Assembly (NCBI GenBank): GCA_035288225.1 | Contig: DATEAT010000007.1 | Span: forward strand, 4,828-68,827 | Direction of reading: 5' to 3' | DNA: 64,000 nt | Origin: Anaerolineales bacterium | GTDB lineage: Bacteria; Chloroflexota; Anaerolineae; Anaerolineales; RBG-16-64-43 | Shown: positions 25,802 through 62,677 of the stretch, one piece after another | Numbering within the stretch: the first letter of the stretch is position 1 | Layout: the number at the start of each line of letters is the position of its first letter | Position numbers and translations under genes: made by a program | The notes under the pieces: generated by a model | Databases searched by the model: none | Seen by the model: the letters and a program-made list of their open reading frames with translations, nothing else | What the model was told of the DNA's origin: nothing

Positions 25802-26236
25802 GTGGCCGAAGCCATTCTGACCCGATGCGGCTATCGCTGCGACCTCTGCCTGGCGTATGCCCCCAATATTGCGCACACTCCCTCGAACCAACAGAAACTG
25901 AGCGACGGCTGGCACGCGTACTTCGGTTTCCGCATTCTCCCGGACGAAATTCACTGCGACGGCTGCCTGAACGAGAATTCGCGGCTGATCGATACGGCTT
26001 GTCCGGTGCGCCCATGTGTCATCGAGAGAGGGCTTGAGAACTGCGCCCAATGCGCCGAGTATGTCTGCGCGCGCCTGAGCCAGCGGCTCGTCTCGTACGA
26101 CCAGCTTCTGGAGAAGACCGGCCGGCCGGTCCCGAACGACGATTACGAGTGTTTCATTCGCCCGTATGAGAACAAGCGACGCCTCGCCGCCCTGAGGGCG
26201 GCGGCGCCCGCGGGTGCACGCCGGCAACGGGAGTGA
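25802..26236 (+). CDS. Cys-rich DUF3795-like protein
   Basis: CGYRCDLC..CDGC..CPVRPC..CAQCAEYVC pattern. GTG 25802 lies 6 nt after AGGAGG. The ORF-track N-terminal extension was rejected. Confidence 0.45.
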   Translation: MAEAILTRCGYRCDLCLAYAPNIAHTPSNQQKLSDGWHAYFGFRILPDEIHCDGCLNENSRLIDTACPVRPCVIERGLENCAQCAEYVCARLSQRLVSYDQLLEKTGRPVPNDDYECFIRPYENKRRLAALRAAAPAGARRQRE

Positions 26237-26379
26237 CCTCCTTGCGCCCTGCGGCCAGGGACATTCGGGGCGGCCCGCCTGGCGGCCGCCGCGGCCAGTG
26301 TCCGCGCGTTGGCGCAGCGCGGGCCACTGCCTGCCGAAGGCATTCGAACTACAGGCTCCATCATACGGGAGGGGGGCCG

Positions 26380-29121: not shown

Positions 29122-29278
29122 GTATTCATGCGGGTCGTAGCCTGCGTCCTTTCAATCGAAAGAGGATAGCCCGCAGGCGCATGCCACTCTACATCGAGTC
29201 GGCAACGTACGCCGGCCTGGCTCGCCATGGCCAGTAGGCGCTCATGATGCGTTTGGGGCGGACTGGCAAGGGGGGTGA

Positions 29279-31393
29279 ATGAACCTCATCCGGCGCCGCC
29301 TGCTGATGTGCAGCCTCCTCGCGGCGGGCTTCTTGCTTCCGCCGGCGCTGCCGTCCCCTGCCGCCGACAAGCGCGAGATGCGCTCTGACCTGATATGGGA
29401 GTGGGCGACGGGATCGATCAAGACCAGGTTGCCGGAACGCTCGATCGAAGTCACCGATCTGGATGGGGATGGCGCCACCGACATGGTTGTGTGCCAGCAG
29501 GGTTACGTCACCAATTTGAACTTTGTCCCTCCCGCGGCCTATGCACCTGCCTGGTTCAGTGTTTACATGCGATGCACCGCGATCGCTACCGGCGACCGGA
29601 ATGGGGACGGCGCACGGGAGATCTACGCCCTGGTAGACCCCGGACGTGTCGTCATCCTGGATGCGAGCGGCCGCGCCGAACTGGGCGCATTCGACCTGCC
29701 CGCCGGCGTCGTCTCATATGATCTCGCCGTTGCCGATGTCGACGGTGACACCCATTCGGAGATCGTGGTCTCCCTCCGCGATCGCACGCTCGTCTATGAC
29801 GCGGCAACCTTTGCGCTGGAGTGGAGCGCGATCGGCCACGGTGCCGGTTCTGCCCACAACGGCGGAGTCCTTATCGCCAACATCGATGGCGATGCTTTGC
29901 TGGAAATTGTTGTCAACGGCGATGCCGGCCACATTCTGAACGCCGCTCTCCAGACGGAGGAATTCGGCATTGCCGGCGGATTGGGAAAGGACTTCGATCT
30001 GAGCGACGTCGACTCCGACGGCATGGCGGAAATCGTGTATGGCGAGAGTACCCAACTATACATCCTGGACGCTGATACGCTTTCGGTCAAGTGGCAACGC
30101 GGCGATCTGCCGATGGCGTACAGTGTGGTCGCCGTCGACCTGGACGGCAACGGCGAAACCGAAATCGTGCATGGAGATGGGAATGTGGTCCGTGGTCTCA
30201 ACGGGGCTAACGGCGCAACCCTGTGGACCTGGGACACTCCGCGCAACGAAACCGAGGGCCTTGTTGCCGGGGACCTCGACAGTGATGGCCTGGTGGAGTT
30301 GGGATGGGCGGCTCCCAGTGTCGGCGCCCTGTACATCGGGGACTGGCAATCGCAGACCGTCGACTGGGAGAGTTGGGACTATACGGGCACCTTCCTGGCA
30401 GAGACAGGTGATGTTGATGCCGATGGGGAAGGCGAGATTCTCGTCGCCCCGCGGTCGGGGGACTTGCTGGCTTACGCCGGGTCGTCGCACGATTTGCTCT
30501 GGTCGAAGGTGGACGACCCGGGGCTTTACCACACCTCCTTTCTCGAGCTGGGCCAGGTGGATGACGACTCCGCCCTAGAGATCCTTACCGCCAACTATTC
30601 GACATTGAGCGCGTTCGATGGGGCTACGGGGATGCGCGAGTGGGCGTATCACGTCTTCTCCTCGTCCGACCCCGCAGGGCTCGCTGTCGCCAATCTGGAT
30701 TCCGATCCGCAAGACGAGATCGTCATCGGCACCACGGCTGGCCACGTGCTTGTTCTGGACTCGGATGGAAGCACGGTATTGTGGGACAGCGGCGCCCAGC
30801 CTGGTTCGATCATTGATTTCTCCCTGGGCGACCTGAATGGTGACGGGGTCCTGGACCTGGCCGTCCTGACCGCTCAGGTCCTACGAGTGTTCACGACGGA
30901 CACATGGGAGCTGACCCAGGATGTTCCCTTCACGGATGGCGTTGCCATTGCCGTCGCCAACGGTGACGGGCGCAATGCGGGCGAACTGATCACCGCACGC
31001 TACGCCGGCTCCTACCTGCACACCCTCCAGGCCTGGAATGGCATCGACCTTCAACCCATCTGGCAGGAGTCACTATCCGTTGGCAGCGTTGAAGAGATCG
31101 ATGTCGCGGACCTGGATTCGGACGGCGTGCAGGAATTTCTCGTCATGGGCGTCTTTCGATACGACGTGATCGCGCATCCGAGCAGCTACCTGCGCATCGG
31201 CGCGCTGTATCACGACCCGGTGTGGGAGTATCAACTTCCCGACAATTGGGAGACGGTGTACGGAAGTGCGGCCTTCGACCTCGATAACGACTCGCGTCTG
31301 GAGCTTGTCCTGGGCGCCCATGCCACAGTCCAGGTGTATGAGGTCACGGGCTGGCCGGTGTATTACCTGTTTACTCCATTCGTGACACGCTGA
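29279..31393 (+). CDS. Secreted FG-GAP/VCBS-type repeat protein (14 blades), paralog lacking the C-terminal domain
   Basis: Signal peptide. 14 DxDxDG-type loops in the same blade order as the upstream gene (for example blade 4 ANIDGD and blade 10 ANLDSDP). Confidence 0.7.
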   Translation: MNLIRRRLLMCSLLAAGFLLPPALPSPAADKREMRSDLIWEWATGSIKTRLPERSIEVTDLDGDGATDMVVCQQGYVTNLNFVPPAAYAPAWFSVYMRCTAIATGDRNGDGAREIYALVDPGRVVILDASGRAELGAFDLPAGVVSYDLAVADVDGDTHSEIVVSLRDRTLVYDAATFALEWSAIGHGAGSAHNGGVLIANIDGDALLEIVVNGDAGHILNAALQTEEFGIAGGLGKDFDLSDVDSDGMAEIVYGESTQLYILDADTLSVKWQRGDLPMAYSVVAVDLDGNGETEIVHGDGNVVRGLNGANGATLWTWDTPRNETEGLVAGDLDSDGLVELGWAAPSVGALYIGDWQSQTVDWESWDYTGTFLAETGDVDADGEGEILVAPRSGDLLAYAGSSHDLLWSKVDDPGLYHTSFLELGQVDDDSALEILTANYSTLSAFDGATGMREWAYHVFSSSDPAGLAVANLDSDPQDEIVIGTTAGHVLVLDSDGSTVLWDSGAQPGSIIDFSLGDLNGDGVLDLAVLTAQVLRVFTTDTWELTQDVPFTDGVAIAVANGDGRNAGELITARYAGSYLHTLQAWNGIDLQPIWQESLSVGSVEEIDVADLDSDGVQEFLVMGVFRYDVIAHPSSYLRIGALYHDPVWEYQLPDNWETVYGSAAFDLDNDSRLELVLGAHATVQVYEVTGWPVYYLFTPFVTR

Positions 31394-31545
31394 CAACACG
31401 TGTAGCGCCTTAGAGCATACTTGAGTCTCAATCCATGCACCCTCGGTTCGCGGGCCAGCCGACGCGGCGTCCCGCGCGGGATGCATTCCCCTTACAATAG
31501 ATCCACCATCATCCGCAGGCGATCACAGCACTCGGAGGGTCCGTG

Positions 31546-33156
31546 ATGACATATGCCTGGTGGCAGGAAGGCGTCATCTACCAGATCTACCCACGCTCGT
31601 TCGCCGACGACGACGGCGACGGCGTGGGCGACCTGCGCGGGATCATCGCCCATTTGGATCACCTCAACGACGGCACCCCCAACTCCCTGGGCGTGGACGC
31701 GATCTGGCTCTCGCCGGTCTATCCCTCGCCGGGCTACGACTTCGGCTACGACGTGGCCGACTACTGTGACATCGCCCCGCTCTTCGGCACGCTCGCCGAC
31801 TTCAACCGCCTGATCGCCGAGGCCCACCGCCGCGGTATGCGCGTTCTCATGGACATGGTGGTCAATCACACCTCGCACCAGCATCCGTGGTTCGTTGAAT
31901 CGCGCGCCGCGCGCGAGAATCCCAAGCGGGATTGGTACATCTGGCGCGATGCACGCGCCGGCGGCGGCAGACCCAACAAGTGGGAATCGGTTTTCGGGGG
32001 ACGCGCCTGGGAGTGGGATGAGGCGACCCAGCAGTACTACTACCACATGTTCCTCAAGGAACAGCCGGATCTCAACTGGCGTAATCCCGACGTGCGCCGT
32101 GCGGTGATGCAGGTCTTCCGCTTCTGGCTGGAGCGTGGGGTGGATGGCTTCCGCCTGGACGTGGTCAACGCTTATTTCAAGGACGCCGACCTGCGCGACA
32201 ACCCGTCCAAGCTCGGCATCCGCGGCTACGATCGCCAGGCGCATGTCTATGATATGGACCGCCCCGAGCTGATTGGGGTCTACCGCGAGCTGAACACGCT
32301 GCTCGCCGAGTACGGCGAGCGCATGGCGGTGGGCGAGATCATGGAGGCCACGCACGCGAAGGTCGCGCGCTACAGCGGGCCGGGGCGGCTGCCGCTCGCA
32401 TTCAACTTCGAGTTCACGCGCCAGCCGTGGCAGGCGCGAGCGTTTGCGCGAGCGGTTGCCCGCTGCGAGGCCTCCCTGGGCGAAGCGGGCTGGCCCTGCT
32501 ACGTGCTCTCCAACCACGATGTGCCGCGCCACGCCTCGCGCTACGGCGGGCGCTTCGCGGTCGAGCGGGCCAAGGTGGCGGCGGCGATGCTGCTCACGCT
32601 GCGCGGTACACCCTTCCTTTATTACGGCGAGGAGATCGGCATGCGCGACGGCCGCATCCCGCGCGCGCAGATCCAGGACCCGCCGGGGAAGCACTACTGG
32701 CCTCTGTACGGCGGTCGCGACCCCGAGCGCACGCCGATGCCGTGGAGCGCGGAAGAAGGCGCCGGCTTCAGCCGCGGCCGGCCGTGGCTGCCGATCAACC
32801 GGGACTATCGCGAGGTGAACGTTGCGGCGCAGCGCGATGATCCGCACTCGGTGTTCTCGTTCTACCGACAGCTGATCTGGCTGCGCAAGGCGAGCGTGGC
32901 GCTGCGCCAGGGGAGTTACCGCCCGCTCATTCAAGCGCCGCGGCACGCGCAGGCTTACCTGCGCGATGCGCCAGGCCAGCGGATGCTGGTGGCGCTCAAC
33001 TTCTCCGCCCAACCGCTGGTGGCCCCGTTCAACGAGCCGCTGCCGCGTGCGGCCTGGCGCCTGCGCCTCAGCACGCACGCCGCGGCGCATGAGCCCATGC
33101 AGGGCGGTAGCATACATCTGCGGCCATACGAGGCGTGCATCTTCGAGGCCGAGTAA
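31546..33156 (+). CDS. GH13 alpha-glucosidase / oligo-1,6-glucosidase-like
   Basis: WWQEGVIYQIYPRSF.DDDGDGVGDLRGI, GVDAIWLSPVY, DMVVNHTS, GFRLDVVN, GEIME and SNHD conserved regions. Confidence 0.85.
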   Translation: MTYAWWQEGVIYQIYPRSFADDDGDGVGDLRGIIAHLDHLNDGTPNSLGVDAIWLSPVYPSPGYDFGYDVADYCDIAPLFGTLADFNRLIAEAHRRGMRVLMDMVVNHTSHQHPWFVESRAARENPKRDWYIWRDARAGGGRPNKWESVFGGRAWEWDEATQQYYYHMFLKEQPDLNWRNPDVRRAVMQVFRFWLERGVDGFRLDVVNAYFKDADLRDNPSKLGIRGYDRQAHVYDMDRPELIGVYRELNTLLAEYGERMAVGEIMEATHAKVARYSGPGRLPLAFNFEFTRQPWQARAFARAVARCEASLGEAGWPCYVLSNHDVPRHASRYGGRFAVERAKVAAAMLLTLRGTPFLYYGEEIGMRDGRIPRAQIQDPPGKHYWPLYGGRDPERTPMPWSAEEGAGFSRGRPWLPINRDYREVNVAAQRDDPHSVFSFYRQLIWLRKASVALRQGSYRPLIQAPRHAQAYLRDAPGQRMLVALNFSAQPLVAPFNEPLPRAAWRLRLSTHAAAHEPMQGGSIHLRPYEACIFEAE

Positions 33157-34306: not shown

Positions 34307-36343
34307 ATGAGTGCCAACCGTAGCGCAGGCATCTCGCCGGGCGAGTACTCGGCCGCGCCTCCAGGCGAGAAGATCGGCGTGTACATCTGCCACTGCGGCA
34401 CCAACATCGCCGCCATGGTGGATGTTGCCGAGGTGGCCGAGTACGCCGGGGCGCTGCAGGGAGTGGCCGTCGCGCGCCACTACACCTACATGTGCTCCGA
34501 CCCGGGCCAAGCGATGATCCAGGAGGATATTCGCTCGCTCGGCTTGGACCGGGTGGTGGTGGCCTCCTGCTCGCCGCTCATGCACGAGCCCACCTTCCGT
34601 GCGGCGTGCGCCCAGGCCGGTCTCAACCCGTTTCTCTTCCAGATGACAAACATCCGCGAGCACGTCTCGTGGGTGAGCGACGACCGCAGCAGCGCAACGC
34701 AGAAGGCGCTGGCGTTGGTGACGGCAGCCGTGCGCCGGGTGTCATTGCAGCAGCCGCTCGAGACCCGCCAACTGGGAGTCACCCAGTCGGCGCTGGTGGT
34801 GGGCGGCGGTATTGCCGGCATCGAGGCCGCGCTACGCCTGGCCGATGCCGGCAAGCGAGTGTATCTGGTAGAGCGTGAGCCGTCGATCGGCGGGCACATG
34901 GCCCAACTCTACAAGACCTTTCCCACTCTCGACTGTGCGGCCTGAATTCTCACCCCCAAGATGGTGTCCGTGGGACGCCATGAGAACATCACACTCCTCA
35001 GCTACAGCGAGGTGGAAGCTGTATCCGGTTTCGTGGGGTCCTTCCAGGTGCGCGTGCGCCGCAAGGCGCGCCATGTGAAAGAAGATTTGTGCACCGGCTG
35101 CGGCACCTGCGTGCAGAAGTGTCCCTGGCGCAAGATCCCCTCCGAGTTCGACCTGGGCCTGGGCACCCGCCCGGCGATCTACTTCCCCTTCGGCCAGGCC
35201 GTGCCGCGCGTGCCGGTCATCGACACCGAGCACTGTGCCTACTTCGCCAAGGGCACCTGCCGCGCCTGCGCCAAATTTTGCCCGCGTGAAGCCATCGACT
35301 TCGAACAGACCGACCAGCAGCTCGAGCTCGAGGTCGGCACGATCATCCTGGCCACCGGCTTCCAGAACTACGACCCGCGCCGCGACTCGCGCTTCGGGTA
35401 CGGGGAACTGCCGGACGTGGTCACCGGGCCGGAGTTCGAACGGCTGGTGAATTCGGGCGGGCCCACATTGGGGCAGGTGCTGCGCGCCGACGGCACCCCA
35501 CCCAAGAAGGTGGCCCTCATCCATTGTGTGGGCAGCCGCGGCGAGGCACACGAATACTGCTCGCGCGTGTGCTGCATGTATTCGCTCAAGCTGGCGCACC
35601 TCGTCCACGATGCGACCGGGGCCGAGGTGACCGAGTTCTACCGCGACATGCGCACCTTCGGCAAGGACTACGAATCGTTCTACCGCCGAGTGGTTGCGGA
35701 GGGCATCCATACCTTCCGCTATGAGGGTGATGTGCAGGTGACCCAGGCCGATGGCCACTTGCGGGTGACCGCCACCGATGTGTTCACGGGAAAGCCGGCC
35801 GAGATCGAAAGTGACATGGTGATCCTGGCCACCGGCCTGGAGCCGCAGGCCGATCAACGGCAGGTGGCCCGCCGTTTCGGAGTGAGCCTCAGCCCGGACG
35901 GTTTCTTCATGGAGCGCCACCCCAAACTGGCGCCGGTGGAAACGGCCAGCGACGGCATCTTCCTGGCCGGCACCTGCCAGGGGCCCAAGGATATCCCCGA
36001 CAGCGTTGCCCAGGGGGGCGCCGCGGCGGCGGCCGCGCTCTCGCTGATGGATGCGGGCTACGTCTATCTCGAGCCCTTCACGGTGCACGTGCTGTCCGAG
36101 CGCTGCAGCGGCTGCCGCACCTGTCAGAACCTGTGCCCCTTCAGCGCGATCCAGATGACCGAGCACGACGGACGAACGGTCTCCACGATCAACGAAGTGC
36201 TGTGCAAGGGCTGCGGCACGTGCGCCGCCGCCTGCCCGGCCGGCGCCATATACCAGAACAACTTCTCCAACGATCAGGTCATCGCCGAAATCCTCGGGGC
36301 GCTGTCGATCGACCGCGCCGTTCCTCAGGAGGCCTTCCCATGA
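34307..36343 (+). CDS. hdrA: HdrA-like flavoprotein (heterodisulfide reductase subunit A family), selenocysteine-containing (TGA 34943-34945 read as Sec)
   Basis: ORFs 34307..34945 and 34961..36343 are in the same frame, separated only by TGA. Joined sequence: ..YKTFPTLDCAA-U-ILTPKMVSVGR... Other HdrA hallmarks: VYICHCGTNIA, GGGIAGIEAAL, CTGCGTC, CVGSRGEAHEYCSRVCCMYSLK, FLAGTCQGPKDIP, and a C-terminal 2x[4Fe-4S] ferredoxin. ATG follows AAGGAGGAG. Confidence 0.8.
34961..34981 (+). other. Putative bacterial SECIS-like hairpin (AUGGUGUCC gug GGACGCCAU)
   Basis: 9-bp stem including one G-U pair, starting 15 nt after the UGA. An equivalent hairpin follows the second UGA. Confidence 0.4.
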
Positions 36344-39300
36344 ACCGCTCCTCCCCCCGGACGGGCGTCTACGTCTGCCAGTGTGGGACCAATATTGCCG
36401 CGACGGTGGAGGTGCAGCAGGTAGCCGAGTTCGCGCGCGACCTGCCGGGCGTGGTGGCCGCCCGCAGTTACAGCTATATGTGCTCCGAGCCCGGCCAGGC
36501 GCTGATCAAGCAAGACATCCAGGACCACGGCCTCAACCGCGTGGTGGTGGCCTCCTGTTCGCCGCTCATGCACGAGCCCACATTCCGGCGCGCATGTGCC
36601 GAGGCCGGCCTCAACCCCTTCTGCATGCAGATGGCCAACATCCGCGAGCACTGTGCCTGGGTCATCGACGACCGTCAGCAGGCCACCGCCAAGGCCAAGC
36701 ATCTGGTGGCGGCCGCGGTCCGCCGGGTGGCTCAGCACCGCCCGCTGGAGATGCGCCAGGTGCATGTGGAGCCAGCCGCGCTGGTGGTGGGCGCGGGCAT
36801 CGCCGGCATCGAGGCGGCGCTGCGCCTGGCGGAGGCGGGCAAGCAGGTCTATCTGGTGGAGCGCGAGCCGTCGATCGGCGGCCACATGGCCCAGCTCTAC
36901 AAGACCTTTCCCACCCTCGACTGTGCGGCTTGAATACTCACACCCAAAATGGTGTCCGTTGGACGCCAAAAGAACATCAAGCTGCTGAGCTACAGCGAAA
37001 TCGAATCGGTTTCAGGCTATGTGGGCAACTTCGAGGTGCGCGTGCGGCGCAAGCCGCGCTACATCGATGAGAGCAAGTGCACCGGCTGCGGCAATTGCGC
37101 CACCGTCTGCCCGATCGAGGTGACCAACGTCTTCGACCTGGGGCTGAGCACGCGCCGCGCGGTGTACCGCCACTCGCCGCAAGCCGTGCCCGGCGCGTTT
37201 ACGATTGAGAAGCGCGGCATCGCCCCGTGCCGCAATGCCTGCCCAACCGACCAGCGCGCCCAGGGTTACATCGCCCTGGTTCGCCAGCGGCGTTTCGCCG
37301 ATGCCTACTGGGCCATCCGCCGCGAGCATCCCTTCCCCTCGGTGTGCGGGCGCGTGTGCAACCATCGCTGCGAAGATGCATGCAGCCGGGGCAGTTACGA
37401 TCAGCCGGTCAATATCATGGCCCTCAAGCGATTCGTCGCAGATTGGGCCTTCGACCATCGCGACCAGCTCCCGGCCCAGCGCGCCAAGTCGCTCACCGGC
37501 ACGCCCTTTGCCGTGCACCCGACGGCCAGCGGCAAGAAAATTGCGATCATCGGCGCCGGGCCGGCCGGGCTGACCACCGCCCTCGACCTGGTGCGCCTCG
37601 GCCACCAAACCACGGTATTCGATTCACTGCCGGTGGCCGGCGGGATGATGCGCGTGGGCATCCCGCCCCATCGCATGCCGCTGGAACTCATCGAATGGGA
37701 GATTCAGCAGATTCTGGACGAGGGCGTGCAATTGCGCCTGAACACGTGGGTTGACGACATCCCGGCGCTGCTCGACCAGGGCTACCATGCGGTGCTCATC
37801 GCCACCGGTGCCCACCAGGCCAAGAAGATTCCCATCCGCAACTCGAACCATCCCGACAACTGGCTCAGCCTGAACCTGTTGCGGCGTGTGGCGCAGGGCG
37901 AGGCGATCGACCTGCGCGAGCGCAGCGTGATCGTGATGGGCGGCGGCAACGTGGCCCTCGACACGGCGCGCACGGTAGTGCGCCTGGGCGCGCGCCAAGT
38001 GAGCATCGTGTGCCTCGAACCGCGCGGCGAGATGCCGGGCTTCGCCTGGGAAGTGGGGGTGGCCGAGCAGGAGGGCATCCACGTGCTGCCCGGGCGGACC
38101 TTTAAGGAAGTGGTGGTCAAGGGCAGCCGCATCAGCGGGCTGCGCTGCACCGAGGTTGTCTTCCGTGGCTTCAAGCGCGGGCGGCCCGATATCAGCGAGA
38201 TTCCCGGCACCGAGCACGTTGTGCCCGGCGATCTGGTGATCTGGGCCATCGGCCAGGGGCCGGATTTCTCCTTCCTGCCCGGCGACGGCAGCATCAACAC
38301 GTGTTATCCGGTGGGTATCCAGACCAACAGCGAGATGATGACCACCACCCCGGGCGTGTTCTGCGCGGGTGATGTGCGCCGCGGGCAGACCTTCTTTGTG
38401 GTCGACGCCATCGGCGAGGGCCACCACGCCGCGCGCTGCATCGACCGTTACCTGCGCGGCGAGCAGGGTGTGCAAGAAACGCATCGGCCGCCGGTGGTGG
38501 AATTGCGCCGCGAGGAGATCGAGCACAAATTGGAGCTGGGGGAAGCCGCGCGCCATCCGCGCGCGGTGATCCGCAACATCGGCGTGGAAGCGCGCCGGCT
38601 CAACTTCCGCGAAGTGGATCTCACGCTGACCGAAGCCGAGGCTGTGGCCGAGGCCGAGCGCTGCCTGCGCTGCGGAGTATGTTCCGAGTGCTTGGAGTGC
38701 GTCTCGGCATGCGAGCGAGGGGCGATCAACCACGACATGCAGGCCGAGATCTTGGATCTCAAGGTGGGGACGCTGGTGCTGGCCACCGGCTTCCGCGATT
38801 TCGACCCGCGAGTTGCCCCTGAGCTGGGTTACGGGCGCCTGCCAAATGTGCTGAGCGCTATGGAGTTTGAGCGGCTGATCAACACCGGCGGCCCGACGCT
38901 GGGCAAGGTGCTGCTCGCCAACGGTCAGCCGCCCAAGCGGGTGGCCATCGTGCACTGTGTGGGCAGCCGCGACGACCGCTACCACGAGTATTGCTCGCGC
39001 GCCTGTTGCATGTACTCACTCAAGATCGCCCAACTGGCACACGAGTACCTGCAGGCGGAGGTGTTCGAGATCTACCGCGACATGCGCTCCTTCGGCAAAG
39101 GCTACGAGGAGTTCTACAACCGCACGCGCGCGAGCGGCGTTAACTTCTTCCACGGCCGGGTGCGCGAGGTGACGGCGGTTGATGGACACCTGCGCGTGCA
39201 GTGGGAAGAGAGTTTCCACAACGAGCCCGACCAGGTGGACGTGGACCTCGTGATTCTCGCCACGGGCATGGAACCGCAAGGCGATACGGCACGCATGGCG

Positions 39301-39762
39301 AAGCTTTTCGGTCTCTCGCGCAGCCGGGATGGGTTCTTCCTCGAGCGCCATCCCAAGCTCGCCCCAGTGGAGACCTCCTCGCAGGGCATCTTCCTTGCCG
39401 GAGCGTGCCAGAGTCCCAAAGACATCCCCGACACGGTGGCGCAGGCCTCTGCCGCTGCAGCCGGCGCGCTGGCCCTCATCGACCAGCACACCATCAGCCT
39501 GGATCCCTCCATTGCCGAGGTGGAGGCGGCACGCTGCCTAGGCTGCGGCCAGTGTGCAGCCGCCTGCCCGTATGGGGCCATCGAACTGGCGCGCGGCAAG
39601 GCCGCGGTCAACGCCTACTTGTGCAAAGGCTGCGGCACGTGCGCCGGGGCGTGCCCGAACAAGGCCATGAGCCTCATCCATTTCGACGACCGCGAGTTGA
39701 TTGCCGAACTGGACGGTGCCCTGGCGTGGATCGATGCCGCCGAAGAGGTGGGCCATGTATGA
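36340..39762 (+). CDS. Chimeric HdrA-like flavoprotein with inserted GltD/NfnB-like NAD(P)H-binding module, selenocysteine-containing (TGA 36931-36933 read as Sec)
   Basis: ATG 36340 overlaps the hdrA stop (ATGA). ORFs ..36933 and 36949.. share a frame across TGA, in the identical TLDCAA-U-ILTPKMVSVGR context. The middle about 430 aa has CRNACP..VCGRVCNHRCEDAC, GKKIAIIGAGPAGL, VIVMGGGNVALD and GVFCAGD. The flanks are collinear with HdrA. Confidence 0.75.
36950..36968 (+). other. Putative SECIS-like hairpin (UGGUGUCC guu GGACGCCA)
   Basis: 8-bp stem starting 16 nt after the UGA at 36931. Confidence 0.4.
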
Positions 39763-40243
39763 ACCCAAGGTGATCGGATTCCTGTGTACCTGGTGCAGCT
39801 ACACCGGCGCCGACTCGGCCGGCACCTCGCGCCTGAAAACCCCGTGGAACCTGCGCGCCGTGCGCGTGCCGTGCTCCGGGCGCGTGGCGCCGGAGCTCAT
39901 CCTGCGCGCCTTCGACCAAGGGGCCGACGGCGTTCTGGTGCTCGGCTGCCACATCGGCGAATGCCACTACGACAGCGGCAACCATCGCGCCGCTAAGCGC
40001 ATCCCGCTGCTGCTCTCCATCCTGGAGTTTGCCGGGATGCAGCCCGAGCGGCTGCGTTTGGATTGGGTGTCGGCCTCGGAGGGCGATCGCTACGCGCGGA
40101 TCGTGAGCGAGTTTGTCGACGCGCTGCGCCCACTTGGGCCCGACACCTGGCGTATCAGCGGCGCCGCCCCGAGGGCCGACGCGGCGATCGGCGTGCCGCT
40201 GGCGGCGTCGTCGGAGCTGAGCGGAGGCGCACCATGTCCATAA
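39755..40243 (+). CDS. mvhD: MvhD/FlpD-like protein (methyl-viologen-reducing hydrogenase delta subunit family)
   Basis: GFLCTWCSYTGADSAG..VPCSGRV..GADGVLVLGCHIGECHY. The start overlaps the upstream stop by 8 nt. Confidence 0.8.
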   Translation: MYEPKVIGFLCTWCSYTGADSAGTSRLKTPWNLRAVRVPCSGRVAPELILRAFDQGADGVLVLGCHIGECHYDSGNHRAAKRIPLLLSILEFAGMQPERLRLDWVSASEGDRYARIVSEFVDALRPLGPDTWRISGAAPRADAAIGVPLAASSELSGGAPCP

Positions 40244-41127
40244 GCGAAGCCATGCAATCCGCGGCGCGCGATGTGCTGGCCTCCGGCCAAGTACAACGGG
40301 TCATCGGCTACGAGGTAGGCCCGCACGGCCGCGTTCGCCCGGCGATCATCGACCGGCCGGAGGAGGCCGGGCGCCTGGTGTGGAGCGCGGACTGCACACA
40401 TAACCTGACTGTCTACCTGCAGCGCGCCTTGAACGGCGAGAACGGCCGCGCCTCGCACGAGGCCGCGACCCCGCCGACGCGCGTCGCCATCGTCGTCAAG
40501 CCGTGCGACAGCCGCGCGATCAATGTGCTGCTCGCCGAGCACCAGTTCTCACGCGAGCAGGTTTTCGCCATCGGCATGGCCTGCGAGGGGATACGCCAGG
40601 GCGCGCCGGCCAGTGTGCCGGAGGCGACGCTGCAGGCACGCTGCCTGCGCTGCCGCGAGCGGGTGCCGGTAGTCCAGGATGTGCTGCTCGGCGAGCCGCC
40701 GAGCGCGCTGCCGGAGGCGCTGCCGGACGAGGCGCTGGCGCACGTGCGCGGCATGCCGCCGGCCGAGCGGGCCGCCTTCTGGCTCAGCCAGTTCGATCGG
40801 TGCATTCGCTGCTACGCCTGTCGCCAGGCCTGTCCGATGTGCAATTGCCCGACCTGTCTCTTCGAACAAGAGGATGCACTGTGGGTGGGCATGCGCATCG
40901 CGCCCTCCGAGAAGCGCACCTTCCACTTGGGGCGCGCGCTGCACCTCGCCGGGCGCTGCGTCGGCTGTAACGAGTGCGAACGAGTGTGCCCGATGGGCAT
41001 TCCGATCGGGCTGCTCAACCGCCATCTGGCGGAGACCGTCGAGAGCCTGTACGGTCATCGGGCCGGGATGCAGCCGGTGCTCTCACCGGTGACGGGCATG
41101 CTCAGCGCGGAGGAGAGTGCCCCATGA
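40234..41127 (+). CDS. Iron-sulfur protein, 4Fe-4S dicluster type (FlxC / HydB / AsrA-related)
   Basis: VKPCDSRAINVL, CIRCYACRQACPMCNC and CVGCNECERVCPMGIP. Overlaps mvhD by 10 nt. Confidence 0.6.
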   Translation: MSISEAMQSAARDVLASGQVQRVIGYEVGPHGRVRPAIIDRPEEAGRLVWSADCTHNLTVYLQRALNGENGRASHEAATPPTRVAIVVKPCDSRAINVLLAEHQFSREQVFAIGMACEGIRQGAPASVPEATLQARCLRCRERVPVVQDVLLGEPPSALPEALPDEALAHVRGMPPAERAAFWLSQFDRCIRCYACRQACPMCNCPTCLFEQEDALWVGMRIAPSEKRTFHLGRALHLAGRCVGCNECERVCPMGIPIGLLNRHLAETVESLYGHRAGMQPVLSPVTGMLSAEESAP

Positions 41128-42122
41128 AGACTCTCTCGCGAGAGAATCTCAACCTCTGGCTGGATGGGCTGGCGGCGCAGCAGGTGCTCATCGCCCCGCA
41201 CCTCGAGGCGCAAGGCGTGTTCTATCGCCCGGTGCAGCGGGCCCAGGAGATTGCCTGGGAGGCAGGCCGCCCGGTGCTCTCGGCCAAGGAATTCCTGTTT
41301 CCCCCCAGCGAACGCCTGCTCAAGGTGGAGAAGCGCGGGCCGGACATCCGTCTCGAGGCCAGCCCTTCCGCCGCGCCACAAGTGATCTTTGGCCTACGCC
41401 CGTGCGATGCGCGCGGCATCCGCGTGTTGGACGCGGCCTTCGTCGATACACCGCCGATTGACCCCCAGTATGCGAGCCGCCGTGAGAACACGCTGCTCGT
41501 GGGGCTGGCCTGTCGCAGCATGGGCGCCTCCTGCTTCTGTACCGCCGTGGGCCTGGCACCGGATGACCCGCGCGACATGGACGTGATGTTCAGCGATCGC
41601 GGGGCGACGCTGGCCGTGCAGGCCCTGACCCCGCGCGGCGAGGCGCTCATCGCCAACCTGGCGCTGGTCGAGGAGCCAGGGGAAGTGGCGCCCGCCTCGC
41701 GACGAGAGGTGAGCGGCCTGCCAACGGCCGAGGCTTGGAAAGAGAGTTACAGCGACGCGCGATGGGCCAAGCACGGCGAGCGCTGCCTGAGCTGCCGCCT
41801 GTGCGCTTACGTCTGCCCCACCTGCCGCTGTTACGACGTACGCGATGAGGCGCTGCCCTCCCCGCCGGGCGAGGCACACTTCGAGCGGTTGCGCACATGG
41901 GATAGCTGCACGCGGGAAGGCTACCGGCGCACGGCCGGCGGGCACAACCCGCGCGCGGCTTCGGGCAGCCGCCTGCGCAACCGGCTGCTGTGCAAGTTCG
42001 TCTACTACCCGCATCAGTATGGCCCTGCCGCCTGCACCGGTTGCGGTCGCTGCCTCGACGCATGCCCGGTGAACCTCGACCTGCTCGAGATTGGCGGCGC
42101 GCTTCAGGAGGCTGCCCAATGA
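41124..42122 (+). CDS. Iron-sulfur protein, anaerobic sulfite reductase subunit A / sulfhydrogenase beta (HydB) / FlxB-like
   Basis: LRPCDARGIRVLD, CFCTAVG, CLSCRLCAYVCPTCRCYD and CTGCGRCLDACPVNL. ATGA overlap with the upstream gene. Confidence 0.65.
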   Translation: MKTLSRENLNLWLDGLAAQQVLIAPHLEAQGVFYRPVQRAQEIAWEAGRPVLSAKEFLFPPSERLLKVEKRGPDIRLEASPSAAPQVIFGLRPCDARGIRVLDAAFVDTPPIDPQYASRRENTLLVGLACRSMGASCFCTAVGLAPDDPRDMDVMFSDRGATLAVQALTPRGEALIANLALVEEPGEVAPASRREVSGLPTAEAWKESYSDARWAKHGERCLSCRLCAYVCPTCRCYDVRDEALPSPPGEAHFERLRTWDSCTREGYRRTAGGHNPRAASGSRLRNRLLCKFVYYPHQYGPAACTGCGRCLDACPVNLDLLEIGGALQEAAQ

Positions 42123-42964
42123 GCACAGCCGACGGCACCGATCCGATGTATCCACTCCTGGGGCGATTGGTTTCCAGCCGCGACATGGGGCGCGAGATCA
42201 AACTGCTCGGGGTGAAGCTGCTCAATGGAACACAGCCCCGCTTTCCAGCCTATGCGCCGGGTCAGTTCGCCTTCCTTTCGGCGTTCGGAATCGGCGAGGC
42301 GCCCTTCGGGCTGGCCTCCACCACCGAACGAGGCGAAGTGCTTGAGTTCGCCGTGCAGCGCCTGGGCTCCGTGACGACCGGCCTGCACGAGCTGGCCGAG
42401 GGCGATGCGCTGGGGGTGCGCGGCCCCCTGGGCAACACCTTCCCGATGGAGGCCTTCCAGCACAAGAACTTGCTCGTGCTCGGCGGCGGCATCGGCGGCG
42501 CGCCGTTGCGCCCGCTGATTCACAGCGTACTCGACCACCGCCAGGATTATGGTCAATTGACCATTCTGTGGGCAGCCCGCCACCCCTCGCTGCTCATATT
42601 CCGCGACGAATACGAAAGTTGGCGCGCCGCGCCGCACACCGAGCTGCACCTGACCGTGGATGAGGCGGATGCCGCGTGGGATCATCACGTGGGCCTGATG
42701 ACCGATCTTGTGCGGCAGGTGGCGCCCTCAGCCGCCAACACCATCGCCATCACCTGCGGGCCGCCGATTATGATCTATCACGTCGACAAGCTGCTCAGCG
42801 AACTGGGCTTCGCGCCCGAGCAGCGCTACGTCACGCTCGAGGCGCGCATGCACTGCGGCCTGGGCAAGTGCGGACGATGTAATATGGGCGAGCTCTTGGT
42901 GTGCCGCGACGGGCCGGTCTTTTCTATGGCCCAGGTCGGCAACTTCTTGGAGAGTTACCTGTAG
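42119..42964 (+). CDS. FAD/NAD(P)-binding oxidoreductase with C-terminal [2Fe-2S] (AsrB / HydG / PyrK / NfnA / FlxA-like)
   Basis: PGQFAFLS, LLVLGGGIGGAPLRPL and the C-terminal CGLGKCGRCNMG...VCRDGPVF. ATGA overlap with the upstream gene. Confidence 0.7.
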   Translation: MSTADGTDPMYPLLGRLVSSRDMGREIKLLGVKLLNGTQPRFPAYAPGQFAFLSAFGIGEAPFGLASTTERGEVLEFAVQRLGSVTTGLHELAEGDALGVRGPLGNTFPMEAFQHKNLLVLGGGIGGAPLRPLIHSVLDHRQDYGQLTILWAARHPSLLIFRDEYESWRAAPHTELHLTVDEADAAWDHHVGLMTDLVRQVAPSAANTIAITCGPPIMIYHVDKLLSELGFAPEQRYVTLEARMHCGLGKCGRCNMGELLVCRDGPVFSMAQVGNFLESYL

Positions 42965-53401: not shown

Positions 53402-53947
53402 ATGAGCCAGCCCACGCCTTCCACCTCACCCGGCGGCACCCCGGCTTATCGTGATCTGCTGACAAGCTCGTTGTTGATGGGTCTGGGGGGCTGGGCGCTC
53501 ATTGCCGCGCTCGTCTTTCTCGTCTCGCCCACCCTCGGCCCGCGCTGGGCGTTCTTCTTCGCACTCTTCATCGCCCTGGTGGGCACCTCCACTCCGCTGC
53601 TGTGGTACCTCAATCGCCGTTTCTCGCCCGATCCATTCCCAAGCCCAGGCGTGCTATGGCGCGAGGCCGTGGAAGTCGGCGTCTGGGGGTTGTTCCTTGT
53701 TTGGCTGCGCGTCGGGCGCCTGCTCACCCCCTTTGCCGCATGGACGCTGACTGGCGCTGTCTTCGCCGTGGAGCTCCTGCTGCGGCTGTACGAGCGCAGC
53801 CGATGGGCGCCATCGACCTCCGTGCGTTCGCCCGCGGCCCCTGTGGAGGCAACGCCCCCGGCCGAGGCAGCCGAGCCGCCGACGGCATCGCTCGTCACGC
53901 CTCCTTTCATCGATGATGAGTTGGATTCGGACGATCCGCCCGCATGA
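53402..53947 (+). CDS. Membrane protein (4 TM helices, acidic Pro/Ala-rich tail), unknown function; translationally coupled to selA
   Basis: Hydrophobic profile of the ORF. The stop overlaps the selA start (ATGA at 53944). Confidence 0.5.
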   Translation: MSQPTPSTSPGGTPAYRDLLTSSLLMGLGGWALIAALVFLVSPTLGPRWAFFFALFIALVGTSTPLLWYLNRRFSPDPFPSPGVLWREAVEVGVWGLFLVWLRVGRLLTPFAAWTLTGAVFAVELLLRLYERSRWAPSTSVRSPAAPVEATPPAEAAEPPTASLVTPPFIDDELDSDDPPA

Positions 53948-55323
53948 GCCTGCGCGAGCTTCCCTCGGTTGATGTGCTTCTACAGCAGCCCCACACGCGC
54001 CGCCTGACCGAGGCCTACGGGCGCGATCTCACCCTGGATGCGTTGCGCAGCGCGCTGCAAGGCGCGCGGGATGCCGTACGCGCCGGGCAACCCGTTCCAT
54101 CGGCCGAGGTGCTCCTCGAAAGCGCACAGCGGAACCTGGCCGAGTGGACCGCTCCCAGCCTGGTGCCGGTGATCAATGCCACCGGCGTCATCCTGCACAC
54201 CAACCTCGGCCGCGCGCCGCTCAGCGCCTCCGCCCTGCGCGCCATGCTGCAGGTGGCACAGGGCTACGCCACCCTCGAATACGACCTGCCCTCCGGCCAG
54301 CGCGGCACGCGCACGGCGCATGCCGAACGATTGCTCACCCGCCTCACCGGCGCTGAAGCCGCACTGGTCGTCAACAACAATGCCGGGGCCGTCCTGCTCG
54401 CGCTCACTGCCCTCGCCAAGGGGCGCGAGGTGATCATTGCCCGCTCGCAGCTGGTCGAGGTTGGCGGGGGGTTCCGCATCCCGGACGTCATGCGCCAGTC
54501 GGGCGCGCGCCTGGTCGAGGTGGGTACAAGCAATCGCACGCACCCGGCCGACTTCAAAGAAGCACTCGGCGCGCGCACAGCAATGCTGCTGCGTGCGCAC
54601 CATTCGAACTTCCGCCTGGTCGGGTTCACGAGTGAGCCGACACTGGCCGAGATGGCGGAGGTGGCGGCGGCACATCAGGTGCCTGTGGTGGACGACCTGG
54701 GCTCGGGTGCGCTGCTCGATACCGCGGCCTTCGGATTGGGCCACGAACCCATGGTCCAGGAATCGCTCGCGGCGGGCGCGGCGCTGGTGATGTTCTCGGG
54801 CGATAAACTGCTGGGCGGCCCGCAAGCTGGAATCCTGGTCGGGCACGAGGCGTTGATGGCACGCCTGCGCAAGCATCCGCTGGCGCGCGCGCTGCGCGCC
54901 GACAAGTTGTGCCTGGCGGCGCTGGAAGCCACGCTGCTCCACTATGCCCGCGGCGAGGCCCTTCAGGCGCTGCCCGTGTGGCAGATGATCGCCGCGCCGC
55001 TCACCACGCTGCGCGTGCGCGCCGAGCGCTGGGCGGCCGAGCTCGGACAGGGACAGGCGATCGAGAGCCGCTCCACCGTGGGCGGTGGCAGCCTGCCCGA
55101 AGAAACGCTGCCCACCTGGGCGCTGGCCCTTACGCTGCCCAAGCCGCAGACGGTGCTCGCGCGCCTTCGCCAGGCGAGCCCGCCGATCATCGCCCGCGTG
55201 GAGGAGCAGCGCGTGCTGCTCGACCCGCGCACCGTTTTGCCGGATCAGGATGAGATGCTCCTGCGCCAGCTGGCCGAGGTGCTCGCGGCCTCCACGACTA
55301 CACAGACAGGGAAGGCGTCATGA
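53944..55323 (+). CDS. selA: L-seryl-tRNA(Sec) selenium transferase
   Basis: VINATGVILHTNLGRAPL, LEYDL..G.RG.R, ALVVNNNAGAVLLAL and FSGDKLLGGPQAGILVG (PLP lysine). Confidence 0.88.
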   Translation: MSLRELPSVDVLLQQPHTRRLTEAYGRDLTLDALRSALQGARDAVRAGQPVPSAEVLLESAQRNLAEWTAPSLVPVINATGVILHTNLGRAPLSASALRAMLQVAQGYATLEYDLPSGQRGTRTAHAERLLTRLTGAEAALVVNNNAGAVLLALTALAKGREVIIARSQLVEVGGGFRIPDVMRQSGARLVEVGTSNRTHPADFKEALGARTAMLLRAHHSNFRLVGFTSEPTLAEMAEVAAAHQVPVVDDLGSGALLDTAAFGLGHEPMVQESLAAGAALVMFSGDKLLGGPQAGILVGHEALMARLRKHPLARALRADKLCLAALEATLLHYARGEALQALPVWQMIAAPLTTLRVRAERWAAELGQGQAIESRSTVGGGSLPEETLPTWALALTLPKPQTVLARLRQASPPIIARVEEQRVLLDPRTVLPDQDEMLLRQLAEVLAASTTTQTGKAS

Positions 55324-59215: not shown

Positions 59216-59261
59216 CCTCGCCTCCCTTGACCCGTCGATCGCCCTCCACGCGGCGATCGTC

Positions 59262-62555: not shown

Positions 62556-62677
62556 AACGGCGAGAGGTCTACCGCGCGGCAGCGCCCGCTCGCGGCGCGG
62601 GCCGCCGGATCGGTCGTGTGCAGAGGGATGGCTTTGATGAAGGAAAGGCACGGGAAACCTCGCTCGAGAGCGTTCGA

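Follow-up and report, generated by a model that had tools for sequence, protein, structure and literature searches.

Two in-frame UGA codons predicted to encode selenocysteine in adjacent hdrA and hdrL-like genes of an Anaerolineales bacterium

Results

Genes and features at the locus

The 64-kb stretch of DNA from an Anaerolineales bacterium that we analyzed (hereafter referred to as the window) carries hdrA, an hdrL-like gene, further genes of the same operon and selA, all of which are listed in Table 1. At hdrA, the open reading frame 34307..34945 closes at a TGA and the open reading frame 34961..36343 lies in the same frame, with the five codons between both encoding ILTPK, such that the joined peptide reads KTFPTLDCAA*ILTPKMVSVG (the asterisk marks the TGA). 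These frames, their coordinates and the ILTPK codons had been described in the original prediction and were all reproduced here. The start of the hdrL-like gene overlaps the hdrA stop (ATGA), and its translation contains a single internal TGA. This second in-frame TGA was absent from the original prediction.

Table 1 Positions of the genes, predicted selenocysteine codons and hairpins considered in this study, given as coordinates within the window.
Feature	Position	Strand	Description
hdrA	34307..36343	+	678 codons including the Sec codon; HdrA-like FAD/Fe-S flavoprotein; single internal TGA in continuous translation
Predicted selenocysteine codon UGA, hdrA	34943..34945	+	Equivalent of archaeal HdrA Cys/Sec197
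Possible extended SECIS, hdrA (low confidence)	34947..34986	+	Lower stem UUCUCA (34947-34952) with UGAGAA (34981-34986)
SECIS-like hairpin, hdrA	34961..34981	+	AUGGUGUCC-GUG-GGACGCCAU; 9-bp stem; apical loop GUG at 34970-34972
hdrL-like gene	36340..39762	+	1140 codons including Sec; HdrA with inserted GltD/NfnB-like NAD(P)-binding module
Second predicted selenocysteine codon UGA, hdrL-like gene	36931..36933	+	Motif FPTLDCAA-U-ILTPKM, identical to that of hdrA
SECIS-like hairpin, hdrL-like gene	36950..36968	+	8-bp stem; loop GUU at 36958-36960
mvhD/vhuD-like, Cys-type	39755..40243	+	Pfam FlpD E = 1e-47; NCBIfam VhuD and C-terminal part of the HdrA2 model
Fe-S protein, 297 aa	40234..41127	+	Pfam 4Fe-4S motifs only; called on L240
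Sulfhydrogenase beta / AsrA-like subunit	41124..42122	+	Pfam Fer4_22; NCBIfam ShyB, HydB, AsrA
Sulfhydrogenase gamma / AsrB-like FAD/NAD(P)-binding subunit	42119..42964	+	Pfam NAD_binding_1, DHODB_Fe-S_bind
selA, L-seryl-tRNA(Sec) selenium transferase	53944..55323	+	Pfam SelA E = 4e-132; TIGR00474 equivalog

Residues 21-667 of the hdrA product align with solved HdrA chains with E values of 7e-213 to 5e-185 (phmmer against the PDB), and the Pfam domain order is that of HdrA, namely, an N-terminal Fe-S domain, a TrxR-like FAD domain, an inserted ferredoxin and a C-terminal ferredoxin. The two halves of the gene cover successive stretches (1-191 and 194-647) of the NCBIfam HdrA2 model. Scanned separately, these halves score 274 and 508 bits, short of the HdrA2 cut-off of 1100, and they score lower still against two other NCBIfam methanogen HdrA models. 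As the equivalog cut-off is not reached, the protein should be considered HdrA-like and not an equivalog of the methanogen enzyme.

In the hdrL-like product, Fer4_20 and Pyr_redox_2 together span residues 295-694 (Pyr_redox_2 alone, residues 400-694) and are placed by Pfam between the HdrA N- and C-terminal parts, while NCBIfam returns PRK12771 (E = 1.6e-137) and HdrA2. The gene thus displays the HdrL architecture, with HdrA parts, a GltD/NfnB-like insert and mvhD directly after it. An unbroken Cys-type orthologue of 1132 aa is found at locus L247, where the equivalent of the downstream Fe-S protein is fused to MvhD. In the window, this Fe-S protein is without a match in NCBIfam. For the two sulfhydrogenase-like subunits, the assignments should be read with their scores in mind, as the ShyB, HydB and AsrA matches of the beta-like subunit (1e-40 to 1e-44) and the PRK08345 and AsrB matches of the gamma-like subunit (NCBIfam) are all under the respective cut-offs. 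Neither Pfam nor NCBIfam revealed an HdrB/HdrC (CCG-domain) protein in the operon or in the rest of the window; in the relatives L245 and L246, a CCG-domain gene adjoins hdrA.

The residue at the UGA position

When the hdrA product was aligned with Cys- and Sec-type homologues, as had been suggested with the original prediction, 117 of the 120 top scorers presented Cys opposite the TGA, within the motif FPT[LM]DCxxCIL[TA]PKM. With Cys at exactly this column, the in-frame TGA is not a matter of chance. The TGA takes the second position of the C-x-x-C pair and, in the alignment to structure chains, coincides with Cys197 of 5odc_A and X197 of 9sfi_A, which bears out the earlier proposal that U replaces the second Cys of the motif. 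That proposal had also placed the residue at a cluster-ligand position, in agreement with a study in which Cys197 is described as coordinating the N-terminal [4Fe-4S] cluster in the partner protomer (PMC9012536).

Hairpins downstream of the UGAs

The 9-bp hairpin that had been predicted to start 15 nt past the hdrA UGA was recovered as a perfect stem with one G.U pair, a UGA-to-loop distance of 24 nt and an energy of -12.4 kcal/mol, which was matched by none of 200 dinucleotide shuffles (z = -3.7). The hdrL-like hairpin (-11.3 kcal/mol, again with 0 of 200 shuffles as good) also presents a UGA-to-loop distance of 24 nt and is the minimum-free-energy structure of 36931-36978 (z = -2.4). The published criteria for bacterial SECIS elements (bSECIS) call for an apical loop of 3-9 nt, an upper stem of 4-16 bp, a G in the first two loop positions, a UGA-to-loop distance of 16-37 nt and an energy of -7.5 kcal/mol or lower (PMC13188914). 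Both hairpins lie within all of these constraints. The stem of the hdrA hairpin depends on minority codons, namely, UCC, used for 18% of Ser, and GGA, used for 9% of Gly. The G-U of the hairpin loop also forms positions 1 and 2 of a conserved Val codon.

The minimum-free-energy fold of 34943-34990 (-16.0 kcal/mol, z = -2.0) includes an additional lower stem that would extend the hdrA element; this lower stem is not conserved in the hdrL paralogue or in relatives. Rfam returned no match at gathering thresholds over the whole window and, at E <= 10 on 34850-37100, no SECIS or tRNA-Sec family, with sRNA matches at chance level only. Within the hairpin class of the window (10 sequences), one-sided changes occur at one pair, with no two-sided compensatory change.

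Selenocysteine machinery and stop-codon usage

The selA gene, the position of which (53944) had been given correctly in the original prediction, scores 547.6 bits against the TIGR00474 cut-off of 267.9. It is the sole gene of the Sec machinery within the window and lies 19 kb downstream: ARAGORN found no tRNA, including tRNA-Sec (selC), in the window, and no SelB or SelD was found by Pfam in 40 ORFs across it. TGA is the terminal codon of 19 of the 32 Pfam-supported genes in the window, hdrA and the hdrL-like gene included. A heuristic scan of the window for further in-frame TGAs yielded four sites that were judged spurious, although the scan should be considered insensitive, as its thresholds also missed both hdrA-type sites. 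These four were taken to be either frames antisense to high-GC genes or genuine ends of genes.

Survey of related loci

A scan of public genomes revealed at least 119 loci with TGA at the equivalent of HdrA codon 197, of which about 50 are from Chloroflexota and others from Planctomycetota, Calditrichota, KSB1, Zixibacteria, Acidobacteriota and Asgard archaea. It should be noted that these loci were retrieved by a pattern already holding TGA and ILxPKM, such that the conservation of those codons among them is not independent. Cys-type paralogues were sought within the 119 Sec-type loci as an internal control and none was found; the Cys-type control genes were, therefore, drawn from another collection, a single metagenome scan.

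Of 117 bacterial TGA loci, 110 have, within nt 13-57, a stem of 6 bp or more without gaps, as compared to 22 of 117 Cys-type genes and none of four archaeal loci, and the excess of such stems in Sec-type over Cys-type genes persists within GC strata. When a loop starting with GU or GG was also required, the numbers were 97 of 117 Sec-type and 3 of 117 Cys-type genes. At least four SECIS designs are found at this codon within Chloroflexota. Across the HdrA relatives, the commonest class is the GGUC tetraloop (73 of 117), in which pair 29-36 covaries (CG in 43, UA in 27 and UG in 10), 97.7% of cells are paired and the observed covariation was reached by none of 500 shuffles; this covariation concerns the same gene family but another hairpin register than that of the hairpins in the window. 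The SECIS element of Escherichia coli fdhF is the bacterial prototype, and the GGUC tetraloop of most HdrA relatives is the fdhF loop sequence.

The hairpin is, nonetheless, an imperfect discriminator, as L243 and the hdrA of L244, the two closest Cys-type relatives, have retained it wholly or for the most part. The retention is in line with a remnant SECIS, yet weakens the argument from codon choice. In other Cys-type genes with the same MVSVG peptide, that is, three metagenome genes and L245-L247, the hairpin is lost. The codon-choice test with MVSVG-encoding Cys-type genes is thus suggestive, although not a clean one. In one relative, P0115 (locus L242), which has W at the column, a TGA read as Trp was suspected; its codon turned out to be UGG, and the locus lacks a hairpin.

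Of the retrieved genome loci, that of an Anaerolineae MAG came closest to the window, at 74% DNA identity. An independent assembly of the same species (L240) shows 255 mismatches to the window over 20.8 kb (98.8% identity) and has the TGA in hdrA and the hdrL-like gene alike, while a 2.3-kb contig from another sample (L241), which covers no gene but hdrA, matches the window exactly around the codon, TGA included. With both TGAs kept in the one and the hdrA TGA in the other, sequencing error is ruled out. The same species is present in ENA ERZ27256953 and JGI 3300031949. Automated annotation had been expected to split hdrA, and public gene calls on L240 indeed present it as 212 and 460 aa, and the next gene as 197 and 937 aa.

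Discussion

Alternative readings of the UGA codons

It is very unlikely that the UGAs are read through with another amino acid (Cys carried on tRNA(Sec), or Trp or Cys through near-cognate pairing), be it always or when selenium is scarce, with the hairpin serving as a stimulator only. While the inserted residue cannot be told from sequence alone, selB, selC and selD were not seen in the window and P0115 encodes Trp at the codon, this relative has no hairpin, the position is Sec in a solved HdrA, and both hairpins of the window agree with the SelB-type SECIS model as to their loop sequence and their spacing. Furthermore, the window contains an intact selA, the sole known role of which is Sec-tRNA(Sec) synthesis.

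We give only a very slim chance to each UGA being a true stop, with the 212- and 197-aa N-terminal fragments assembling with 460- and 937-aa C-terminal fragments that restart at the Met of PKM. An in-frame ATG is indeed found 15 nt past each UGA, and public gene callers annotate the genes in this manner, but this Met merely belongs to the invariant PKM motif of unbroken homologues. Shine-Dalgarno sequences precede both true starts (AGGAGG in each case, as part of AAGGAGG ahead of the hdrA ATG at 34307), whereas none was present upstream of either internal ATG (34961 in hdrA and that following the hdrL-like UGA) when looked for. The 15 nt between stop and ATG encode the conserved ILTPK, with three synonymous and no non-synonymous differences between the paralogues, and a split would delete the very residue that is Cys in 117/120 homologues.

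That the genes are pseudogenes arising from nonsense mutation, or that the TGAs are sequencing or assembly errors, is effectively refuted. A lone in-frame stop does resemble a nonsense mutation; however, the same codon is affected in two paralogues that are only 68% identical in DNA, the TGA is retained in independent assemblies 98.8% identical to the window, and at least 117 bacterial loci from many phyla present TGA at precisely this codon. In addition, the coding signal continues downstream of the TGA (GC3 of 0.85 and 0.86 in the first and second halves of hdrA, respectively) and the full-length domains are intact. Genome-wide reassignment of UGA to sense (e.g., code 4 or 25), in favor of which stand the two in-frame UGAs and nothing more, is refuted by the stop-codon usage described above, with the heuristic scan having given no other convincing in-frame TGA.

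Proposed reading of the UGA codons as selenocysteine

The UGAs of hdrA and the hdrL-like gene are, in our view, very probably read as selenocysteine by the standard bacterial mechanism. The hairpin found some 20-40 nt past the UGA would act as a SECIS element when the ribosome arrives, with the apical G-U on a stem of 8-9 bp recruiting SelB carrying GTP and Sec-tRNA(Sec), the latter being made by the SelA encoded downstream. Sec would then be inserted at the UGA and translation would go on, such that the full-length products should be an HdrA of 678 aa and an HdrL-like protein of 1140 aa. Direct observation covers the codons and how they align with Cys/Sec197, both hairpins, selA and the conserved arrangement, while selenium incorporation and interaction with SelB at both UGAs are predicted from them.

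In the proteins, Sec would stand in for the second Cys in C-x-x-C, which is residue 197 of archaeal HdrA and has been reported either to coordinate the N-terminal [4Fe-4S] cluster in the partner protomer or to form a Cys-Sec redox relay that links FAD and this cluster. Besides both predicted selenoproteins, the operon encodes MvhD, an Fe-S protein and a pair of subunits that resemble sulfhydrogenase beta and gamma (AsrAB). Together, these products probably make up a flavin-based electron-bifurcating complex that is NAD(P)H-linked and lacks HdrBC. We would extend this only tentatively, to a picture that we consider unlikely as a whole, in which HdrA and the HdrL-like protein form a heterodimer with each Sec197 equivalent reaching the N-terminal [4Fe-4S] domain of the partner, as a selenolate ligand or in a Cys-Sec relay, within an HdrBC-less, NAD(P)H-linked bifurcating complex of a Chloroflexota type, with two selenium sites and a minimal triloop SECIS (C-GUN-G). 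The C-GUN-G triloop differs from the GGUC tetraloop of most bacterial hdrA genes, other Chloroflexota paralogues included.

In practical terms, the public calls for this species break both genes, which belong to a probable electron-bifurcating complex, into four mis-annotated fragments, and presumably the same applies to dozens of Chloroflexota MAGs. Merging the fragments restores predicted selenoproteins of 678 and 1140 aa and marks the organism as a selenium user. The UGAs almost certainly belong to a well-known selenoprotein family, and the result should, therefore, be considered an ordinary annotation fix that would not surprise a selenoprotein specialist. Sec at HdrA position 197 is common well beyond Methanococcales and Deltaproteobacteria, and this wide distribution provides useful background to the question of what Sec197 does in HdrA (PMC13518236).

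Comparison with known systems

The occurrence of HdrA as a selenoprotein is well established for Methanococcales, Deltaproteobacteria and Firmicutes (PMC1794560; PMC2702500), and HdrA ranks among the most widespread bacterial selenoprotein families (PMC1794560). The original prediction was thus right in treating HdrA as a known selenoprotein family, but the range that it gave, Methanococcales and some Deltaproteobacteria, proved too narrow in view of the approximately 50 Chloroflexota MAGs.

The hdrA product belongs to the same family as the HdrA of Methanococcus maripaludis (9SFI chain A), to which it aligns end to end (E of about 1e-190 to 1e-213), and for which Sec197 has been reported (PMC13518236). 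For this Sec, both a role as cluster ligand and one in a Cys-Sec relay have been considered (PMC13518236). Sec occupies the same column in both proteins, that is, the second residue of the FPTxDC-x-x-[C/U]-IL-x-PKM pair, and both have an MvhD/VhuD subunit as a partner; Cys197 counterparts are seen in the HdrA of Methanothermococcus thermolithotrophicus (PDB 5ODC) and in chains 8RVU/8RVV. The archaeal gene, however, relies on a SECIS in the 3'-UTR, whereas the gene in the window has a hairpin in the coding region, which is absent in all four archaeal loci scanned. Unlike in the archaeal case, the operon in the window is without HdrBC, hydrogenase or formate dehydrogenase, and CoM-S-S-CoB should, therefore, not be taken as the substrate.

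Similar in gene arrangement is Desulfobacterium autotrophicum HRM2, in which HdrA1/HdrA2 and HdrL1/HdrL3 contain Sec (PMC2702500). This organism encodes HdrA and fusions of HdrA to a glutamate-synthase-like part (HdrL), each then followed by mvhD, as here, and one of its loci, with hdrL and hdrA in tandem, resembles the window (PMC2702500). The Sec position of our HdrL-like protein is presumably the same as that of HdrL1/HdrL3. The two systems differ in phylum (Desulfobacterota as opposed to Chloroflexota) and in partners, these being DsrABC or Fdh in D. autotrophicum and subunits resembling AsrAB or sulfhydrogenase beta-gamma in the window.

As in the bSECIS model of Zhang and Gladyshev (summarised in PMC13188914), the stem-loops in the window are found in the coding region just past the UGA. 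Their loops of 3 nt (GUG and GUU) are, however, at the lower limit of the model, they contain no bulged U, and they correspond to no Rfam family. A further likeness is offered by Sec-type hdrA genes in Chloroflexota MAGs of other species (e.g., L093 of Anaerolineae N6_285, L083, L006 and L076), which present the same motif and the same spacing and which have the MVSVGR-encoding hairpin UGGUGUCC-GUN-GGACGCCA in common with the window; in public calls, such genes appear only as split ORFs.

Two tandem genes with in-frame TGA codons

In hdrA, the originally noted arrangement of an ORF (34307..34945) ending at the TGA at 34943-34945 and of a second ORF (34961..36343) continuing in the same frame was confirmed on the sequence. 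Translation of 34307-36345 in one frame gave 678 codons interrupted by one stop (...KTFPTLDCAA*ILTPKMVSVGRH...), and the two halves correspond to successive stretches (1-191 and 194-647) of a single NCBIfam HdrA model. The hdrA stop overlaps the start of an hdrL-like gene (ATGA, 36340-36343), which contains a second in-frame TGA, absent from the original prediction, at 36931-36933. This TGA is the sole one in the gene, and the motif around it, FPTLDCAA*ILTPKMVSVGR, is identical to that of hdrA. Two tandem selenoprotein genes are thereby predicted from sequence within the window. The module inserted in the HdrL-like protein was recognized by Pfam (Fer4_20 and Pyr_redox_2) and by NCBIfam PRK12771 (E = 1.6e-137).

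Features of the window considered in the analysis
Feature	Position	Details
Two large FG-GAP/VCBS-repeat proteins	26233-31393	962 and 704 aa; upstream of hdr operon
alpha-Amylase-family gene	31543-33156	upstream of hdr operon
ORF, 186 aa	33275-33835	upstream of hdrA; coding-like GC3, no Pfam match
hdrA	34307-36343	
hdrA hairpin	34961-34981	AUGGUGUCC-GUG-GGACGCCAU; 15 nt between UGA and stem
hdrL-like gene	36340..39762	1140 residues; HdrA with inserted GltD/NfnB-like NAD(P)-binding module
SECIS-like hairpin of hdrL-like gene	36950-36968	UGGUGUCC-GUU-GGACGCCA; 0/200 shuffles as good
mvhD	39755..40243	FlpD E = 1e-47
Fe-S protein gene	40234..41127	downstream of mvhD
Sulfhydrogenase beta / AsrA-like subunit gene	41124..42122	Pfam, NCBIfam
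Sulfhydrogenase gamma / AsrB-like subunit gene	42119..42964	Pfam, NCBIfam
ORF, 181 aa	53402-53947	directly upstream of and overlapping selA; coding-like GC3, no Pfam or NCBIfam match
selA	53944..55323	
Cytochrome c maturation and multi-haem cluster	58508-62765, minus strand	CcsA-like, CcmB-like, 698-aa protein with two cytochrome c domains

As had been anticipated, automated annotation splits these genes: in the public calls for L240, an independent assembly of the window's species, hdrA appears as 212 + 460 aa and the hdrL-like gene as 197 + 937 aa. That the N- and C-terminal parts are in fact made separately is unlikely, as an AGGAGG-type Shine-Dalgarno sequence precedes both genuine starts and none precedes the internal ATGs, and as a coding constraint spans the UGA-ATG gap, whose 15 nt encode ILTPK in both genes with codons that differ at three positions, all synonymously. 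A pseudogene or sequencing error is also improbable, given that the TGAs are retained in independent assemblies: L240 (a 21-kb ENA contig; 98.8% identity and 255 mismatches to window 25502-46346) has the two TGAs and the two hairpins unaltered, and in L241, a 2.3-kb JGI contig from a different sample and covering just hdrA, the TGA and hairpin of that gene are present. Genome-wide recoding of UGA is hard to reconcile with TGA being the stop codon of 19 of the 32 Pfam-supported window genes.

Identity of the predicted recoded residue

Alignment with Cys- and Sec-type homologues bore out the predicted position. The protein aligns end to end with solved HdrA structures (E = 7e-213 to 5e-185), where the TGA falls in the column of Cys197 in 5ODC chain A and of residue 197, deposited as X, in 9SFI chain A. 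Cys occupies this column in 117 of the 120 best-scoring homologues, all 117 being uninterrupted proteins; the other three are a split C-terminal fragment of the window's species, one outside the motif and one with Trp. The TGA and read-through evidence, this residue column and the SECIS evidence below make read-through with insertion of some other amino acid unlikely, as they do the three alternatives already considered.

Cys197 is described as a ligand to the N-terminal [4Fe-4S] cluster, contributed by the partner protomer (PMC9012536). For Sec197 of M. maripaludis HdrA, a Cys-Sec selenylsulfide relay from FAD to this cluster was proposed, the authors leaving its role unresolved (PMC13518236). 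It should also be noted that the homologue P0115 (L242 1824, from a Dehalococcoidia MAG) is full-length, lacks a downstream hairpin and has UGG (Trp) in the Cys/Sec197 column. This UGG is one substitution away from UGA, and likewise from UGC, and P0115 may represent a paralogue that has lost its function, or an error of assembly.

Hairpins and codon choice

The bacterial SECIS model describes an apical loop of 3-9 nt on a stem of 4-16 bp, a G at loop position 1 or 2, mostly with G or U next to it, a UGA-to-loop distance of 16-37 nt and an energy no higher than -7.5 kcal/mol (PMC13188914). Both window hairpins conform to the model in all four respects: that of hdrA has the loop GUG, a 9-bp stem and an energy of -12.4 kcal/mol, that of the hdrL-like gene the loop GUU, an 8-bp stem and an energy of -11.3 kcal/mol, and the spacing is 24 nt in each. 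The hairpin originally claimed for hdrA is thus upheld, none of 200 dinucleotide shuffles being as stable. While DNA identity between the two genes is 68% across 870 nt around the site, the 16 stem nucleotides are nonetheless identical.

To see whether the hairpin exceeds what the amino acid sequence alone would give, public genomes were scanned with the pattern GAYTGY-N6-TGA-ATH-YTN-N3-CCN-AAR-ATG, yielding at least 119 Sec-type loci. The matches listed include about 50 Chloroflexota MAGs, many Desulfobacterota and four archaea, as well as Planctomycetota, Calditrichota, KSB1, Zixibacteria, Acidobacteriota and Firmicutes. As a control, metagenomes, a different collection, were scanned with TGY in place of TGA, giving 117 usable Cys-type sites. 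As the pattern includes the TGA and ILxPKM codons, independent evidence comes solely from the sequence beyond the ATG, which itself supplies the first three stem bases of the window-class hairpin.

Measured on nt 13-57 after the codon, an ungapped stem of at least 6 bp was found, among the matches listed, in 110/117 bacterial Sec-type, 22/117 Cys-type and 0/4 archaeal Sec-type loci, with mean minimum free energies of -12.2, -7.1 and -2.9 kcal/mol, respectively. Such a stem combined with a loop starting GU or GG occurred in 97/117 bacterial Sec-type against 3/117 Cys-type loci among these matches. The Sec-Cys difference in energy (Mann-Whitney p ~1e-24, although kinship among the sequences means that p values overstate independence) persists inside GC strata. 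The archaeal loci with TGA at the same HdrA codon (L017, Hermodarchaeota; L051, Promethearchaeia; L055, uncultured archaeon; L085, Thermoproteota-labelled MAG; two of the four titled as Asgard lineages) have no coding-region hairpin (about -2 to -5 kcal/mol), as expected if theirs is in the 3' UTR, where archaeal SECIS elements are located.

In Chloroflexota alone, at least four hairpin designs occur downstream of this one HdrA UGA (L001-L119, nt 19-45), each with its own peptide: GGAUGYC-GGUC-GRCAUCC (MMDAGR), UGGUGUCC-GUN-GGACGCCA (MVSVGR), GGUUGACGC-GGC-GCGUCAACC (MVDAAR) and GGCCUC-GGU-GAGGUC (MASVRS). In the GGUC design, the commonest (73/117 among the matches listed), position 2 of an Ala/Val codon and the synonymous position 3 of an Arg codon covary: GCC occurs with CGG 47 times and with CGA never, and GUC with CGA 28 times (Fisher's p = 2e-14, in related sequences). 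Alignment pair 29-36 is CG in 43, UA in 27 and UG in 10, a covariation matched by 0/500 shuffles. The window's class comprises 10 sequences among the matches listed, all Chloroflexota-like, and its changes are all one-sided (U.G to C-G or U-A), with no compensatory pair; covariation support for the GUN design is therefore weak. The window stem needs UCC (18% of window Ser codons) paired with GGA (9% of Gly codons), a choice made by all ten Sec-type members and mostly not by Cys-type genes for the same peptide (L122, L126, L158, L245-L247). As exceptions, the close Cys-type relative L243 retains most of the hairpin and the L244 hdrA retains the stem-loop sequence unchanged, and the hairpin is therefore an imperfect Sec/Cys discriminator. 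The best reading of these two is that the SECIS persists as a remnant of a recent change from Sec to Cys; such cases have been described before (PMC1794560; PMC13582414). L244 (JGI 3300041085 contig Ga0452209_003509, positions 1580 and 3566) is a mixed tandem pair, with UGU (Cys) in hdrA, UGA in the neighbouring hdrL and GUGUCC-GUG-GGACAG downstream of both; it resembles the outcome of a recent Sec/Cys switch that left a remnant SECIS, or of gene conversion between the paralogues.

Sec machinery and genomic context

The predicted selA is genuine (Pfam SelA E = 4e-132; TIGR00474 547.6 bits against a cut-off of 267.9), and no selB, selC or selD was found inside the 64-kb window. In Anaerolineales, Sec use was noted for formate dehydrogenases, and SelB was reported (PMC4959059). 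We consider it very probable, judging from the sequence, that both UGAs undergo ordinary bacterial Sec insertion directed by the coding-region hairpins. Each hairpin would direct insertion at its own UGA, giving HdrA and the HdrL-like protein at full length, both with Sec at the position equivalent to Cys197. Genes for HdrB or HdrC (CCG-domain) are absent alongside hdrA, the hdrL-like gene and mvhD, and the selenoproteins, MvhD and the AsrAB-like subunits probably form an NAD(P)H-linked, HdrBC-less bifurcating complex.

The same operon is present in L247 10001-18608 (ENA ERZ511474, 126-kb contig; HdrA 71% identical to the window's), in the order hdrA, hdrL, mvhD fused to the Fe-S protein, AsrA-like and AsrB-like. 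There, hdrA and hdrL are uninterrupted and Cys-type with degraded hairpins, and clpB adjoins the operon, as in the window. The order of the FG-GAP/VCBS-repeat and alpha-amylase-family genes is kept in L240. The cytochrome cluster suggests an organism that does not live by fermentation alone.

Comparison with known systems

HdrA is, as originally stated, a long-known selenoprotein family; it has been reported from Methanococcales, Deltaproteobacteria and Firmicutes (PMC1794560). The "HdrL" architecture was first reported in Desulfobacterium autotrophicum; in that species HdrL1 and HdrL3 contain Sec, and mvhD follows each hdrA or hdrL (PMC2702500). In the window, too, mvhD follows the hdrL-like gene. 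According to our scan, Sec-HdrA is very common in Chloroflexota MAGs, and the matches listed that come nearest to the window's species are Anaerolineae MAGs, with a DNA identity of 74% at most. Family, Sec position, HdrL fusion, mvhD linkage and SECIS type are already known, and what is new is only the present instance, a Chloroflexota species with both genes split in public calls.
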